Assembly: GCA_963807125.1 (NCBI GenBank)
Contig: CAWEAH010000006.1
Coordinates: 498,921-562,920, forward strand
DNA from: an uncultured Alphaproteobacteria bacterium
GTDB taxonomy: Bacteria; Pseudomonadota; Alphaproteobacteria; Rhizobiales; Xanthobacteraceae
Reading direction: 5' to 3'
Length of the DNA: 64,000 nt
Below are positions 43,920 to 50,423 of this stretch, one piece after another. A program made the translations under genes and the position numbers. The notes under the pieces were generated by a model. That model searched no databases and was not told where the DNA came from. It saw only the letters and a list, made by a program, of their open reading frames with translations. Numbering within the stretch: position 1 is the stretch's first letter; each line of letters starts with the position of its first letter.

Positions 43920-44603
43920 ATGCGAGGAAAGTTCATCACTTTCGAGGGCGGCGAGGGCACCGGAAAATCGACCCAAGCCGCCATGCTGGCGCTGCGGCTC
44001 GAAGCCTTGGCGCTTCGCGTTCATCTGACCCGCGAGCCCGGCGGCTCGCCGGGCGCCGAGATCATCCGCCATGTGCTTTTGTCAGGCGCCGCCAAGCCGT
44101 TCGGCCCCGATGTCGAGGCGATGCTATTCGCGGCCGCTCGCGACGATCACGTGCGATCTACGATCTTGCCGGCGCTCGATGCCGGCAAATGGGTGATTTG
44201 CGATCGGTTCGCCAATTCCACCCGCGTCTATCAGGGCATTCTCGGCAAGGTCGATGAACGGCTTCTGAAAAGTCTCGAGCGGGTGTCGGTGGGCGATCTC
44301 GTGCCCGACCTCACGTTCATCCTGGACGTGCCGGTCGAGGTTGGGCTCGAACGGGCCAAACTGCGCCGCGGCGAGGCTACGGCCGACCGCTTCGAGGCCG
44401 AGAATGTCGAGTTTCATCAAAAGTTGCGCGACGCCTATCTGGCGATCGCCGCCGAACAGCCGGAGCGCTGCGTCGTCATCGACGCCAGTGCGCCAAAGGA
44501 GATCGTGGCGCGCAAAATCTGGAGCGTGGTCGGCGCCAGGCTCGATCCGTTGACCTTTCCGGTCAACATTCCGGCCCGGCGGAGCGAAGTGGGCGCCTCA
44601 TGA
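43920..44603 (+). CDS. tmk: dTMP kinase
   Basis: MRGKFITFEGGEGTGKSTQ...TREPGGSPGAE. Confidence 0.9.
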   Translation: MRGKFITFEGGEGTGKSTQAAMLALRLEALALRVHLTREPGGSPGAEIIRHVLLSGAAKPFGPDVEAMLFAAARDDHVRSTILPALDAGKWVICDRFANSTRVYQGILGKVDERLLKSLERVSVGDLVPDLTFILDVPVEVGLERAKLRRGEATADRFEAENVEFHQKLRDAYLAIAAEQPERCVVIDASAPKEIVARKIWSVVGARLDPLTFPVNIPARRSEVGAS

Positions 44604-45642
44604 GCCCGCGCGCCAACGACGAGGACGGTGCCGGCGAAGTCCCGCATCCGCGCCTTACGCCGGCGCTGCTCGGCCATGGCCTGGCGGAGACGGCGCTGTT
44701 GTCGGCTTATCGTTCCGGCCGCGTGCCGCATGCGTTCCTGCTGGCGGGCCCCCAGGGCATCGGCAAAGCCACCTTGGCTTACCGCATGGCGCGCTTTGCG
44801 CTTGCGCATCCCGATCCGGCCGCGCCCGAGGTGCAACAGGCGACATCGCTTTTCGTCGATCCGAACCATCCGGTGGCACGGCGGATCGCCGCCCAGGCGC
44901 AGCCCGATCTCCTTGTCATCGAGCGCACCGTCAACGAGAAGGGCGTCTTGCACAAGCAGATCGCGGTTGAAGATATCCGCAAGACGGTCGGCTTCTTCGG
45001 CTCGACGGCGGGCGAGGGCGGCTGGCGCATCGCCATCGTCGATGCGGTCGACGAACTGAACCGCTCCGGCGCCAACGCGCTGTTGAAGATTCTGGAAGAA
45101 CCGCCGCAGCGCGCGCTTTGCTGTTGGTCAGCCATTCCGCCGCGCGGGTGCCGGCGACGCTGCGTTCGCGTTGCCGCATCGTCACGCTGCGGCCGCTGGC
45201 CGAGGCCGACGTCGCGGCGGCGGCCGCCGCGGCGATGCAATCGACGGCCGACGACCCCGACATCGCCGCGGCTGCGGCTGCAGCCGACGGCTCCGTCGCG
45301 CGTGCCTTGGCTTTGCTCGACGAGGGTGCGCTCGATTTGCGCCGCCAGGCGCTCGATCTCCTCGACAGGCTGCCGGCGACGGACGCCAAAGCGCTGCATG
45401 CGCTCGGCGAGGCGCTGGCGGGGACCGACGCGGCGCCGCTCGCCGCCTTCGTCGATACCATCAATGCCTGGTTGTCGCAGCGCCTGGCGCGGGAGCAGAA
45501 CGCCTTGGGGCGGATGGCCCGCCTCGCCGAGGCCAGCGAAAGCATCAATCGCGCCGCCCGTGACGCCGAGACCTACAATCTCGAGCGAAAGCCGCTGGTG
45601 TTCGGCGTTTTCGGCTTGCTTGCCGAGGCGACGCGCGGTTGA
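44600..45642 (+). pseudogene. holB: DNA polymerase III delta-prime subunit (one frameshift at the T-run at about 45117-45119, probably an assembly indel)
   Basis: HAFLLAGPQGIGKATLAYRMARF...NALLKILEEPPQRAL, then LLVSHSAARVPATLRSRCRIV in the next frame. The ATG overlaps the tmk stop. Confidence 0.8.
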
Positions 45643-45657
45643 TACCAAGCCCGTCCA

Positions 45658-47880
45658 ATGCCCGGCAAACCCTATTACATCACCACCGCGATCGCGTATC
45701 CGAACGGGCCGCCGCATATCGGCCACGCCTACGAGGCGATCGCCACCGACGCCATCGCGCGCTTTCAAAGGCTCGACGGCCGCGACGTGTTCTTTCTCAC
45801 CGGCACCGACGAGCACGGCATCAAAATGTTGCAGACGGCGAACAAGGAAAAACTGACGCCGCGGCAGCTTGTCGAGCGCAACGTGCCGCGCTTCCAGGCC
45901 ATGGTGAAAAAGTTCGAATGCTCGAACGACGATTTCATTCGCACCACCGAGCCGCGCCATCACCGCTCTTCCGAAGAGATCTGGCGGCGCATGGCGGCGG
46001 CCGGCGACATCTATCTCGACAAATATTCCGGCTGGTATTCGGTGCGCGACGAGGCCTATTACGACGAAAGCGAGACCCGCCTCGACGACAAGGGCCAGCG
46101 TCTCGGTCCGCACGGCACGCCGGTCGAATGGGTCGAGGAGGAAAGCTACTTTTTCCGGCTGTCGAAATATGCCGAGCCGCTGCTCAAGCTTTACGCCGAA
46201 GTTCCCGATTTTGTGCTGCCGAAGGAGCGCATGAACGAGGTCGCAAGCTTCGTGCGCGGCGGCTTGCAGGACCTGTCGCTGTCGCGCACGACGTTCGACT
46301 GGGGCATCAAGGTCCCGGACAATGCCAAGCACATCATGTATGTGTGGGTCGACGCGCTGACCAATTACATCACCGCGGTCGGCTTTCCGGACACCGAAAG
46401 CGAAAAATTCAAGAAATACTGGCCGGCCGACCTGCATGTGATCGGCAAGGATATCGTGCGATTTCATGCCGTGTATTGGCCGGCTTTCCTGATGTCGGCC
46501 GGGATCGCGGTGCCGCGGCGGATTTTCTCGCACGGCTTTCTGTTCAACCGCGGCGAGAAAATGTCGAAGTCGGTCGGCAATGTGATCGATCCGTTCGCGC
46601 TGGCCGACGCCTATGGCGTCGATCCATTGCGTTATTTTCTGCTGCGCGAAGTGCCGTTCGGCCAGGACGGCAATTACAGCCACGAAGCCATCGTCAACCG
46701 CATCAATGCCGATCTCGCAAACGATCTCGGCAATCTGGCGCAGCGCTCGCTGTCGATGGTGGCCCGCGGTTTGGGCGGCGTGCTGCCGAAGCCGGCGGTT
46801 TTTTCGACGAGCGACCAGGCGATGTTAGGCGCCGCCGATGCGCTCATCGGCAAGGCGCGCGACGCCATGGCGACCCAGCAGCTCCACCAGGTGCTCAACG
46901 CCGCATGGGCGGTGGTGGCCGAAGCCAATCGCTATTTTGCCGGCGAGGCACCGTGGGCGCTCGCCAAAACCGATCCGCCACGTCAGGGCACGGTGCTCTA
47001 CGTGACCGCGGAAGTTTTGCGCCAGGTCGCGATCCTGGCGCAGCCGTTCATGCCGGGTTCGGCGGCAAAGCTGCTCGATCTGTTGGCGGTCCCGCACGAG
47101 GAGCGCAGTTTTGCCTCCCTCGGCGGCGGCTATCGCATTGCAGCCGGGGTAAAATTGCCGGCACCGGCACCGGTCTTTCCGCGCTATATCGAGCCGGAAG
47201 CTGGAACACCCGACGTTTCATCATCCAAAAAGGCGCCGTCGGTAAAGGTATCCGCTAAAGAGGTCGAAGAGTTCTCCGGTCACTGCGTTTATCTCCGATC
47301 TGTCTATTCTTTCATGACGCGCATATGGAGAGACAGCGATCAGGCAGAGCGCAAAATAATGGAAGCCATCGCTCCTTTATTCTTTGAAGACATTGGAAAA
47401 GTGCTGGGGGAATTCCTCGTGAACGCTGCTTGCAGGATTACCGAGCCCGCAAGTGACCAACGTGGGAATCAAAATTTCACGGTGGAATTATTCGTGAACA
47501 GCTTTTCGTCGGAGCCGGAGACATTCAAAGAACTGGATTTGCTTCGGCAACGCATGATGAAACTGCGTAACAAAATCCTGGCAGCGAGGAACAAGCTGGG
47601 CGCCCACTCAGACCGCGCCGTTATTCTCAAAGGGGAGCCCCTTGGCGCGGCCAGCTGGAATGAGTGGGGCGAGTTCTGGTCTGCACTTCAGGATTTTGTG
47701 CGGGTAGTGAATGAGAAAGTAATCGGGACACCCTTCGAAATAGATGCCGCTGGCGTCTTAGGAGATGCGGAGACACTGTTGAAGGCACTCAGGGAAAGTC
47801 AACATTTTCGGACGTTGCTTAAGAGTGACGATCCGGGAGTCAAGAATGCGTGTGTTAGGCTGACGCTACCTAAAAGCTGA
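45658..47880 (+). CDS. metG: Methionyl-tRNA synthetase (short form, about 515 aa) that continues in frame into a C-terminal extension of about 220 aa
   Basis: [13 protein letters not shown] and an anticodon-binding helical domain ending ...[12 protein letters not shown] (about nt 47205). There is no stop codon until 47878-47880. Confidence 0.85.
47240..47880 (+). other. Low-GC insert encoding a HEPN-superfamily (R-x5-H) Abi-like module, in frame with metG as sequenced
   Basis: Motif [17 protein letters not shown]. Upstream helices [23 protein letters not shown] and [27 protein letters not shown]+C visibly drops. The first in-frame ATG is at 47314. Confidence 0.45.
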
Positions 47881-47916
47881 GTGCCTCTCCTTCGCTTACA
47901 AGGACGTCACATAAGA

Positions 47917-48747
47917 ATGCTCATCGACAGCCATTGCCATCTCGATTTCCCGGACTTTGCCTCCGAGCTCGACGCGGTGGTCGGGCGCGCCCGCGACGCC
48001 GGCATCGAACGCATGGTGACGATCTCGACGCGCGTTGCGCGCCAGGGCGATCTGCTGGCGATCGCCGGGCGTTTCCCCGACGTCTATTGCTCGGTCGGCA
48101 CGCACCCGCATTACGCCCACGAAGAGCCGGACGTGACCGCGGCCGATCTCGTCGCGCACGCGCGTTCGCCAAAGGTGGTCGCGATCGGCGAAGCGGGGCT
48201 CGACTACCATTACGACAATTCGCCGCGCGCGGCGCAGGAGCGGGGTTTTAGGACCCACATCGCGGCGGCGCGGGAAACCGGTCTGCCGCTCGTCATTCAT
48301 TCGCGCGAAGCCGACGACGACACCGCGCGCATTCTCGAAGAAGAGACCGGGAAGGGCGCCTTCCCGGCGGTGCTGCATTGTTTTACCGGCGGGCGGGAGC
48401 TCGCCCGGCGCGCGGTCGCGCTCGGCCATTTTGTCTCGTTCACGGGCATTCTTACTTTCAAGAATTCAGCCGGTCTGCGGAAAATCGCCGCCGAACTGCC
48501 GGCCGACCGCATTCTGGTCGAGACCGATGCGCCGTATCTGGCGCCGGGCAAATTTCGCGGTAAGCGCAACGAGCCGGCTTACGTGATCGAAACCGCCAAA
48601 GTCCTGGCCGAGGCGCGCGGCGTTTCCTTCGACGACATCGCCCGACAGACCACCGCCAACTTCTTTCGGCTGTTTCGCAAGGTGCCGCGATCTGCCGGCG
48701 CAGACAAATCTATGCAGTCTGCCCAATCAAAGTCCTCCGCGGCTTGA
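47917..48747 (+). CDS. tatD: TatD-family metal-dependent hydrolase/DNase
   Basis: MLIDSHCHLDF...AIGEAGLDYHY...VIHSREA...LHCFTG...VETDAPYL. Confidence 0.85.
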   Translation: MLIDSHCHLDFPDFASELDAVVGRARDAGIERMVTISTRVARQGDLLAIAGRFPDVYCSVGTHPHYAHEEPDVTAADLVAHARSPKVVAIGEAGLDYHYDNSPRAAQERGFRTHIAAARETGLPLVIHSREADDDTARILEEETGKGAFPAVLHCFTGGRELARRAVALGHFVSFTGILTFKNSAGLRKIAAELPADRILVETDAPYLAPGKFRGKRNEPAYVIETAKVLAEARGVSFDDIARQTTANFFRLFRKVPRSAGADKSMQSAQSKSSAA

Positions 48748-49662: not shown

Positions 49663-50343
49663 TCACCAAATTCCCGGACAAAGCCGCCAGCGGACGCGCG
49701 CGGCATAGGCGCGATAGCCGGGAAGCTCGGCTTGCAAAATGCGATCCTCGGTGATCGCGCGATAGAGCAGAAACGGCAGGCTCATGGCGACCAGGAACGC
49801 GGTCGCCAGCCAGGAGCCGAGCGCGATGCCGCTTGCCGCGATAATCAGGATTCCGGCCAAATAACCCGGATGCCGGATTACGGCGTACGGACCGGTCGTA
49901 ATCACGAACTGGCCGCGGTCGGTCTGGATGCGCACGACCGACGAGAAAAACCGGTTCTCGCGCATCGCCCACAGGCACAAGGCATAAGCCGCGGCGATGG
50001 TGACCAGCCCCAGCGCCTGCAGCCATGGCGGAACGGTATCGCTCCAGTGGAAGCGGCCGCGATCGAGCCCGGCGAGGACCCAATGGATAAACAGCACGCC
50101 GGAGAAGACCTGCAAGCCGACGGGAGGCTTTCTTCCGCCGGGCCGCATTCGCTCGCGGACCAAATCGGGATCGATCAAGAGAAATGAGGCGATGAAGACG
50201 GCCGCAAAGATCGCCAAATAGATCCAGAAACCCGGCATGGCGAAGGTCCCGGCCGACATGAACAGCGCCAACGCGGCCAGCACGAAAAAGCCAATAGCTT
50301 GAAGATACGCCGAAATCGGCATCGCAGGCCTCATTGACGACAT
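49663..50343 (-). CDS. Isoprenylcysteine carboxyl methyltransferase (ICMT/PEMT)-family membrane methyltransferase
   Basis: Multi-TM protein with VITTGPYAVIRHPGYLAGILII...EDRILQAELPGYRAY. The start is chosen at an internal ATG (50343) of ORF 49663..50403. Confidence 0.65.
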   Translation of the reverse strand: MSSMRPAMPISAYLQAIGFFVLAALALFMSAGTFAMPGFWIYLAIFAAVFIASFLLIDPDLVRERMRPGGRKPPVGLQVFSGVLFIHWVLAGLDRGRFHWSDTVPPWLQALGLVTIAAAYALCLWAMRENRFFSSVVRIQTDRGQFVITTGPYAVIRHPGYLAGILIIAASGIALGSWLATAFLVAMSLPFLLYRAITEDRILQAELPGYRAYAARVRWRLCPGIW

Positions 50344-50344
50344 T

Positions 50345-50370
50345 GGAACCAAAATCGTGGCGAAGGCGTT
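50345..50370 (+). promoter_or_regulatory. EcfG-type promoter motif GGAAC-N17-CGTT upstream of dps
   Basis: GGAAC at 50345-49 and CGTT at 50367-70, 103 nt upstream of the dps GTG. Confidence 0.55.
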
Positions 50371-50389
50371 CTTCGGCAAGCCCGCCCCA

Positions 50390-50423
50390 TGGCTCTTCGG
50401 CAAATCTGGCTCTTCGGCAAATC
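50390..50423 (+). repeat. Perfect tandem duplication, 2 x 17 bp (TGGCTCTTCGGCAAATC), in the dps leader
   Basis: Read directly. A third degenerate copy (GCGTTCTTCGGCAAGCC) lies at about 50366-50382. Confidence 0.9.

Follow-up and report, generated by a model that had tools for sequence, protein, structure and literature searches.

The AbiU2 family (PF18734) takes its name from AbiU2, encoded at the AbiU abortive-infection locus of Lactococcus lactis. The family was classified among the HEPN domains by Anantharaman et al. 2013 (PMC3710099), where HEPN domains are defined by an Rx4-6H motif with a polar residue (N, D or H) directly after the R, and where domains bearing the motif are predicted to be RNases. 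HEPN RNases that act on tRNA have been described: PrrC and RloC are tRNA anticodon nucleases (PMC3710099), and Cas13a acts as an anticodon tRNase (PMC11042736). Here we describe a predicted AbiU2-type HEPN domain that is encoded in frame behind a complete methionyl-tRNA synthetase (MetRS), the product of metG. The fusion lies in a stretch of 64,000 nucleotides from an uncultured soil alphaproteobacterium of the Xanthobacteraceae (assembly GCA_963807125.1, contig CAWEAH010000006.1, positions 498,921 to 562,920 of the forward strand). This whole stretch is referred to as “the window”, and positions are counted from its first nucleotide.

The locus shares some properties with each of the closest known systems and differs from each in others. 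As in the AbiU2 family, the extension of the synthetase scores above the profile cutoff, carries an Rx5H motif with Asn and an acidic helix-2 residue, gives an all-helical model and has relatives in mobile elements. Known family members, however, are standalone proteins of ~200-270 aa or carry small N-terminal helix-turn-helix (HTH) or other segments, whereas the partner in the window is a complete essential synthetase in a core operon. PrrC and RloC likewise place a C-terminal HEPN RNase behind a large N-terminal regulatory module in one polypeptide. They cut tRNA and so abort phage infection, and by analogy the fusion may work in the same way, but their N-terminal module is an ABC/Rad50-like NTPase, their HEPN domains are of other families, and they are dedicated, non-essential defence genes. 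In Cas13 the HEPN R...H site, once activated, cleaves tRNA anticodon loops and translation is halted (PMC11042736); unlike the fusion, it has two HEPN domains per protein, is activated by the pairing of its CRISPR RNA (crRNA) with a target and has no relation to a synthetase. The Trbp111/EMAPII-like domain of long-form MetRS is also an extra domain joined by a linker after the anticodon-binding domain, but it has an OB-type fold, no nuclease motif and vertical inheritance, and is neither recently mobile nor of low G+C. No architecture combining an aminoacyl-tRNA synthetase (aaRS) with HEPN was found in the HEPN survey (PMC3710099) or in full-text literature searches on HEPN plus synthetase. 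What appears new from its sequence is thus a complete essential aaRS with a HEPN domain in a core operon, the AbiU2 family being already known.

The window was compared with other loci in which tatD follows metG: L001 and L055, which carry the module, and L052 and L053, which are free of the insert. The features of the window are as follows.

45658..47880, + strand: fusion open reading frame (ORF), a single uninterrupted frame of 740 aa, predicted 82.7 kDa
45658..47214, + strand: metG, complete short-form MetRS, aa 1-519 (NF008900, Pfam, HIGH/KMSKS; ends at the stop position of non-fused relatives)
47201..47916, + strand: segment of 716 bp and low G+C that is missing from insert-free relatives (DNA alignments of the window, L001, L052 and L053; composition)
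47215..47247, + strand: linker, aa 520-530, 11 aa, rich in Ser, Lys and Pro (alignments; upstream extensions of standalone loci)
47248..47877, + strand: AbiU2-type HEPN domain, aa 531-740, 210 aa (PF18734)
47386..47400, + strand: E-D-I-G-K, aa 577-581, acidic Ex3K element in predicted helix 2 of the HEPN core (alignment, model)
47587..47607, + strand: R-N-K-L-G-A-H, aa 644-650, predicted Rx5H catalytic motif with Asn directly after Arg (family alignment, model)
47878..47880, + strand: TGA stop of the fusion ORF (ORF reading)
47917..48747, + strand: tatD, conserved as the next gene of the operon (88% identity with TatD of L001 and L052)

The MetRS part is the housekeeping methionine--tRNA ligase, as its full-length equivalog match, its motifs and its position in the operon show. 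NCBIfam model NF008900 (methionine--tRNA ligase) matched it with 647.5 bits (cutoff 598) over aa 4-528, corresponding to positions 4-527 of the 648 in the model. Pfam domains tRNA-synt_1g and Anticodon_3 were found at aa 6-364 and aa 379-482, and the HIGH and KMSKS motifs lie at aa 20-23 (45715-45726) and aa 301-305 (46558-46572). Non-fused MetRS proteins end in the alignment with ...PRYVEPEAxAAQ and a stop. Over the 208 aa compared, MetRS of the window is 92% identical to that of the insert-free L052. The gene order in the window is tmk, holB, metG, tatD and a gene of the MBL fold; tmk-holB-metG-tatD is also the order in L052 and L053. The tatD ATG lies 36 nt past the fusion stop, with AAGGA ~12 nt upstream of it.

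On sequence criteria, membership of the extension in the AbiU2 HEPN family is established. PF18734 (HEPN_AbiU2; cutoff 26.8) matched the extension alone (the last 225 residues) with 52.3 bits (E 6.7e-14) and the full protein with 48.9 bits, spanning profile positions 7-179 of 193. Among 5.8 billion proteins searched, 125 AbiU2 homologues of the module were found at 52-77% identity (E down to 3.5e-105). Nearly all of these consist of PF18734 alone and are mostly ~271 aa long, and some were named AbiU2 at source. When 1.84 billion representatives were searched exhaustively with a profile, the wider family came to 1002 clusters, the great majority of them single-domain proteins 180-300 aa long; of 145 representatives that were scanned, 127 matched PF18734. 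R117 and H123 in domain numbering (R644 and H650 of the motif) show no variation across 81 homologues and all fusions; D51 of the Ex3K element is invariant in the homologue alignment, and the D after the H is also family-invariant. The AlphaFold2 model of the module is all-helical, with a predicted local distance difference test (pLDDT) score of 81.6. In it, R117 closes a long helix (93-122) and H123 opens the following loop, E50-D-I-G-K54 lies within helix 48-66, two helices before the motif, and residues 67-92 form an insert outside the core. Motif and helix topology agree with the published HEPN definition at the level of secondary structure (PMC3710099). Foldseek searches with the model gave a best E of 0.34 against the PDB, where the top 50 entries listed included no HEPN structure, and a non-significant best E of 0.7 against BFVD; a profile search of PDB sequences with the module found nothing better than E 0.13. 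To our knowledge no AbiU2-type structure appears to have been solved. The initial annotation, made from the letters alone, had proposed a 740-aa frame with a complete short-form MetRS bearing HIGH and KMSKS, followed by an R-x5-H motif with Asn after the Arg and an AbiU2-type HEPN domain. NF008900 and Pfam agree on the first part, and R644-N-K-L-G-A-H650, the predicted helix topology and the PF18734 match above the gathering score agree on the second.

Judged from its reading frame, metG-HEPN is a genuine translational fusion. AbiU2 homology starts at V531 (VSAKEVEEF...), 11 residues past the stop position of non-fused MetRS, and the linker resembles the stretch before the HEPN core in standalone homologues (e.g. 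...ASKKAPPTP...). As the initial annotation had noted, no in-frame ATG, GTG or TTG occurs between the end of MetRS and the ATG at 47314. The junction has no start codon in any frame, and none is conserved among the three fusions for which DNA is available (the window, L001 and L055). The N-terminal segment of standalone proteins (MRTEQQI..AAAAAEKANGGKF..PLFYKPEHRAFW...) is absent from the window. Over the 22 module codons upstream of 47314, the proportions of synonymous (pS) and nonsynonymous (pN) differences between the window and L001 were 0.78 and 0.107. This synonymous-biased divergence indicates that these codons are translated in the metG frame.

The same MetRS-AbiU2 arrangement, followed by tatD, was found in three independent metagenome contigs of other soil bacteria, with 65-74% identity in the module, in support of the fusion reading that the initial annotation had put forward as one of two. 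In L001 (JGI 3300032805), the MetRS C-terminus (1-297) and AbiU2 (316-945) lie in frame 1, with tatD at 968 and then the MBL and ICMT genes. In L055 (JGI 3300086613), MetRS (1-231) and AbiU2 (about 256-885) are also in frame 1, with the stop at 889-891 and the tatD ATG at 930. P0018 (JGI 3300067032) is a 267-aa, edge-truncated product that opens with the MetRS C-terminus, its next gene lying 10 nt past the stop; its MetRS-AbiU2 arrangement is a gene-level record. The linkers of these fusions vary in sequence and length (11 aa in the window, AAQS-like in L001, longer in L055), and the frame is intact in each. Precomputed Pfam annotation lists PF18734 for P0018 and for two further proteins, P0006 and P0022.

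The module occupies a DNA segment that begins inside the last metG codons, where homology to the host is lost, and runs to the tatD start codon. Host homology stops at ...GAGCCGGAAG (47191-47200) and returns at the tatD ATG (47917), so that the insert sits exactly at the metG/tatD junction (47200-47916), where the initial annotation had placed it. The drop in G+C that had been judged by eye was confirmed by composition: in 200-nt windows G+C was 0.475-0.565 over 47200-47900 and ~0.65-0.67 on both sides, and per segment it was 0.62 in the metG core, 0.511 in linker plus module and 0.651 in tatD. No flanking direct repeats, internal promoter, terminator or Rfam family was found in the insert region, and no integrase at the core tmk-holB-metG-tatD operon of the window, in agreement with the earlier failure to see an integrase or repeats. 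The window copy of the module is not within a mobile element or defence island; only standalone relatives are.

L052 and L053 keep the native metG stop in the same neighbourhood and have no module. In L053 the tatD ATG lies 2 nt after the metG TAA; in L052 a 100-nt palindromic spacer resembling a repetitive extragenic palindrome (REP) separates the two genes. This spacer (729-828) is a long, near-perfect palindrome (GACGTCATTGCGAGGAGCGAAGCGACGAAGCAATCCAG...CTGGATTGCTTCGCTGCGCTCGCAATGACG) with the look of a REP or a miniature inverted-repeat transposable element (MITE), and the 36-nt spacer of the window (47881-47916) has only AGGACGTCA in common with it. Insertions seem to have occurred repeatedly between metG and tatD.

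The three fused modules for which DNA is available are all of low rather than native G+C (0.49-0.51), which fits the horizontal insertion suggested at the outset. Their G+C at third positions of four-fold degenerate codons (4-fold GC3) is 0.52-0.62, compared with 0.88-0.90 in host genes and 0.71-0.78 in the closest standalone genes. Since the G+C of the fused modules is far below that of host genes, the modules have not been ameliorated. Their GC3 is below that of even their closest mobile relatives, the opposite of amelioration. Possible reasons are that the modules were replaced recently or repeatedly, or that rare codons are selected for in the tail.

Standalone homologues were found in mobile and defence-associated surroundings. 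One lies in a Bradyrhizobium prophage (P22-type portal, terminase, capsid) beside a SieB-like gene, another in an integrase/DUF3987 island with Mrr_N, HNH and helicase-MZB neighbours, and further ones in an ArdC/NikA region and adjoining an Mrr_cat nuclease. These contexts imply that the module derives from single genes that are mobile and associated with defence, and together with the passage from metG directly to tatD in L052 and L053 they support the foreign origin that had been proposed. In the prophage (Bradyrhizobium sp. SZCCHNS2015; L002, 6001-7375), the AbiU2 gene overlaps its downstream gene, which has a weak Pfam match to SieB (superinfection exclusion), by 35 nt; the pair lies between the capsid and portal modules and looks like a prophage “moron” defence pair.

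Standalone AbiU2 proteins (P0001-P0120; loci L002-L051) differ at the N-terminus, where at least three alternatives occur. Type A (MRTEQQI..AAAAAEKANGGKF..PLFYKPEHRAFW) was seen in 65 sequences, type B reads MATIFDTE..AAELNGAAG..EKWAIAR..TYWGWDE, and ~18 sequences have no N-terminal segment at all; no Pfam family matched the alternative segments. All fusions drop the standalone N-terminal segment, and the synthetase sits in its place. Among the longer architectures, which are rare (P0242, P0372, P0329), two combine an XRE-type HTH (HTH_31/HTH_3) with AbiU2, and the third has an unannotated N-terminal domain of ~215 aa (…YGSLIDDPGEEL…). HTH domains (n=3) were the only recurrent partners in the 145 representatives of the wider family, and neither these representatives nor the other fetched loci contained another synthetase or housekeeping partner.

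A second synthetase carries the same HEPN core. Two proteins of the Soil Reference Catalog, P0092 (266 aa) and P0375 (156 aa), consist of the C-terminus of aspartyl-tRNA synthetase (AspRS), a linker and the HEPN core. The AspRS part (class II) matched PF00152 with 55.6 bits at profile positions 267-308 of 308 and includes ...LRELHIRINLP; native AspRS ends in ...IRLNLPA and a stop. A short linker (..TQAPK) follows, then the core from VSxKEVEEF, with RNNLGAH intact and PF18734 above cutoff in P0092. The core is joined to AspRS at the same residue (KVSxKEVEEF) as to MetRS. P0092 and P0375 are 87% identical, with ~6% divergence in AspRS and ~17% in the module, and have the same joint; a chimera is unlikely given two diverged AspRS variants with one joint. 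The AspRS-fused module is closest to another standalone subgroup (P0374, 73%), which points to a separate capture. A further candidate chosen by coverage, P0426, was rejected as an AspRS with an unrelated tail.

The module is under purifying selection, as measured by codon comparison: pN was 0.14-0.17 and pS 0.70-0.84 among the fused modules (0.158 and 0.76 for the window versus L001). The four MetRS fusions retain each of the 10 residues that are invariant in the family, R110, R117, H123 and D125 among them. Fused modules are 62-73% identical among themselves (pN 0.16), no closer than to standalone proteins. Neighbor-joining trees (bootstrap support 2-48%) do not decide whether the fusions are monophyletic, but the fusions have otherwise rare residues in common: N62 in 5/5 (10% of standalone proteins), M107 in 4/5 (3%) and E69 in 4/5 (6%). 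Nonsynonymous divergence (dN) of the window from the insert-free L052 and the insert-bearing L001, respectively, was 0.034 and 0.096 for the MetRS C-terminus, 0.065 and 0.100 for MBL, and 0.099 and 0.111 for ICMT. Host genes of L052 are therefore slightly nearer to the window than those of L001, which requires loss, repeated gain or allele transfer. Synonymous divergence (p4) was 0.56-0.71 for fused modules and 0.30-0.47 for host genes. Saturated module p4 was considered as proof of independent captures, and this argument was withdrawn owing to host codon bias (4-fold GC3 ~0.9, saturation ~0.59); with codon bias allowed for, p4 between L001 and L055 is compatible with co-divergence. Whether one fusion was kept for a long time or fusions were fixed repeatedly, either course speaks against a neutral accident. 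Note that the number of fusions should be considered a lower bound, because the word-indexed protein search was not exhaustive (a junction-spanning query missed P0006). A scan of a genome collection gave four loci, none of them fused.

The explanation to which we give an even chance is that a mobile AbiU2 RNase was captured as a module tethered to a synthetase, which would supply tRNA proximity or regulation, and that the RNase would shut down translation. It builds on the fusion, mobile origin, recurrence and motif conservation described above. The domain would have been captured from single-gene systems of the abortive-infection or superinfection-exclusion type residing in prophages and integrative islands, losing the ~52-residue standalone N-terminal segment as the synthetase took its position. 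The module would retain the predicted RNase active site and be kept as coding sequence. The synthetase would not be a random carrier: the same core is fused to MetRS in the window and at least three other lineages and to AspRS, with the same joint and shared rare residues, which argues for a non-random partner. It could give a metal-independent HEPN RNase proximity to tRNA, regulation, or both. Upon a trigger such as phage infection or translation stress, the RNase would attack RNA present at the synthetase, the bound tRNA being the most plausible target, and translation would be shut off in the manner of the anticodon nucleases. RNase activity, tRNA substrate, trigger and defence role are suggested here by sequence and by analogy.

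Several points weigh against this explanation. No antitoxin or regulator is evident, and an RNase that is made constitutively as part of an essential enzyme would have to be kept silent. The HEPN fold is assigned from the Pfam profile, the motif and the modelled secondary-structure topology, and PADLOC and NCBIfam models give no match to the module. We know of no AbiU2 protein that has been biochemically proven to be an RNase. Fusions are rare (~6 of ~130 subfamily sequences and 0 of 145 wider-family representatives) and patchy among close relatives, L052 being without the module, which would also fit a tolerated transient accident. The AspRS fusion is known from protein only (a protein-level soil assembly), and the purifying signal may partly predate the fusion if the captures are recent.

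A further reading, which we entertain tentatively, is that the aaRS is the built-in tRNA-selecting or infection-sensing module of an effector resembling HEPN anticodon nucleases. The essential synthetase would then contain its own device for defence or for shutting off translation. Such a device would have arisen or been retained several times (four MetRS lineages and one with AspRS), each time with the synthetase in place of the N-terminal adaptor of a mobile AbiU2 gene, and its substrate would be the cognate tRNA, either tRNAMet (initiator or elongator) or tRNAAsp.

That the module is a passenger, an AbiU2 gene that landed behind metG, lost its N-terminus and start, obtains expression from MetRS with neither tRNA delivery nor sensing, and acts, if it does so at all, like any other AbiU2 effector, is in our judgement unlikely, although it is the strongest of the rival explanations. 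An intact and conserved module would be expected here too, its standalone relatives work as single genes without a conserved partner, the 18 standalone sequences without an N-terminal segment suggest that the core may be self-sufficient, and rare, patchy fusions fit as well. Expression alone does not need a translational fusion, however, and against a passenger stand the two unrelated synthetases, with no other housekeeping protein as partner among ~270 family sequences examined, and the otherwise rare residues common to the fusions.

Less probable still is an exaptation in which the HEPN bundle is no longer a toxin and serves MetRS as a non-catalytic RNA-binding or dimerisation module. The module stands where long-form MetRS has its tRNA-binding domain (NF008900 is matched only to 527 of 648), the fused modules lie on long branches with fusion-specific substitutions, and there is precedent in the HEPN domains attached to nucleotidyltransferases, which were domesticated for binding or regulation (PMC3710099). 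Inactive domesticated HEPN domains, however, typically lose Rx4-6H (PMC3710099), whereas R, N, H and D are kept in 6/6 fusions that cover the region, and close relatives do well without the module.

Very improbable is a recent, non-functional read-through tail in which disabling mutations are yet to come: low, unameliorated G+C and the absence of the module from the closest relative, L052, are what such a remnant would give, but the four MetRS fusions differ by 26-34% in protein and are all uninterrupted with every invariant residue kept, pN is far under pS, and the two AspRS variants keep one joint despite their divergence.

The second reading of the initial annotation, that a 1-nt indel in error-prone sequence conceals where metG really stops and the HEPN domain belongs to a gene of its own, is scarcely credible: an A5 run does lie in the linker (47229-47233), the other two frames do have stops at 47243 and 47256, and holB of the same window does need one more T in a T-run for its frame, but a shifted frame would still offer a separate HEPN gene no upstream start, the N-terminal segment of the family is missing, and three independent assemblies with different linkers share the same continuous frame. 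A hidden stop was thus rejected for the fusion itself, despite the likely indel in holB.

The suspicion that the sequence is error-prone was justified by holB (DNA polymerase III delta', 44600..45642), which is read in two frames with a shift near 45116-45119, at the run in “gcgctttgctg”. With one T added at 45116-45119 it reads ...QRALLLLVSHSAARVPATLRSRCRIV..., and the conserved ...EEPPQRALLLLVSHSAARVPATLRSRCRIVTLRPL... is restored. The split is probably a homopolymer sequencing error. In L053 (2805-5971; ENA contig_34068), metG, tatD and the MBL-fold gene were each called in several pieces; it is an error-rich long-read assembly, which explains why very long contigs gave many MetRS “proteins” of 100-160 aa. 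Downstream in the window, an ORF of the ICMT/PEMT family (49663..50403, - strand) is 246 aa long when read from TTG. The L001 and L052 orthologues have 219 aa and start with MP(M/I)SAY, and the real start in the window is probably the internal ATG.

Defence and toxin RNases are usually carried on dispensable mobile loci; here one of predicted type is attached covalently to an essential translation enzyme. That it is found in several lineages, behind two unrelated synthetases and in a core operon suggests that a HEPN effector and the tRNA-charging machinery are directly linked in function. Proteins of this kind would be labelled just “methionine--tRNA ligase”, which leaves the module invisible to annotation. 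Even if the coupling is incidental, the locus shows how a mobile defence gene becomes domesticated once it is captured in frame at a core gene's stop codon. If the synthetase does deliver or gate the RNase, immunity or stress-induced translation arrest would be wired into housekeeping metabolism in a new way, the AbiU2 family would gain a testable substrate (tRNAMet or tRNAAsp), and the aaRS repertoire would gain a new appended domain.

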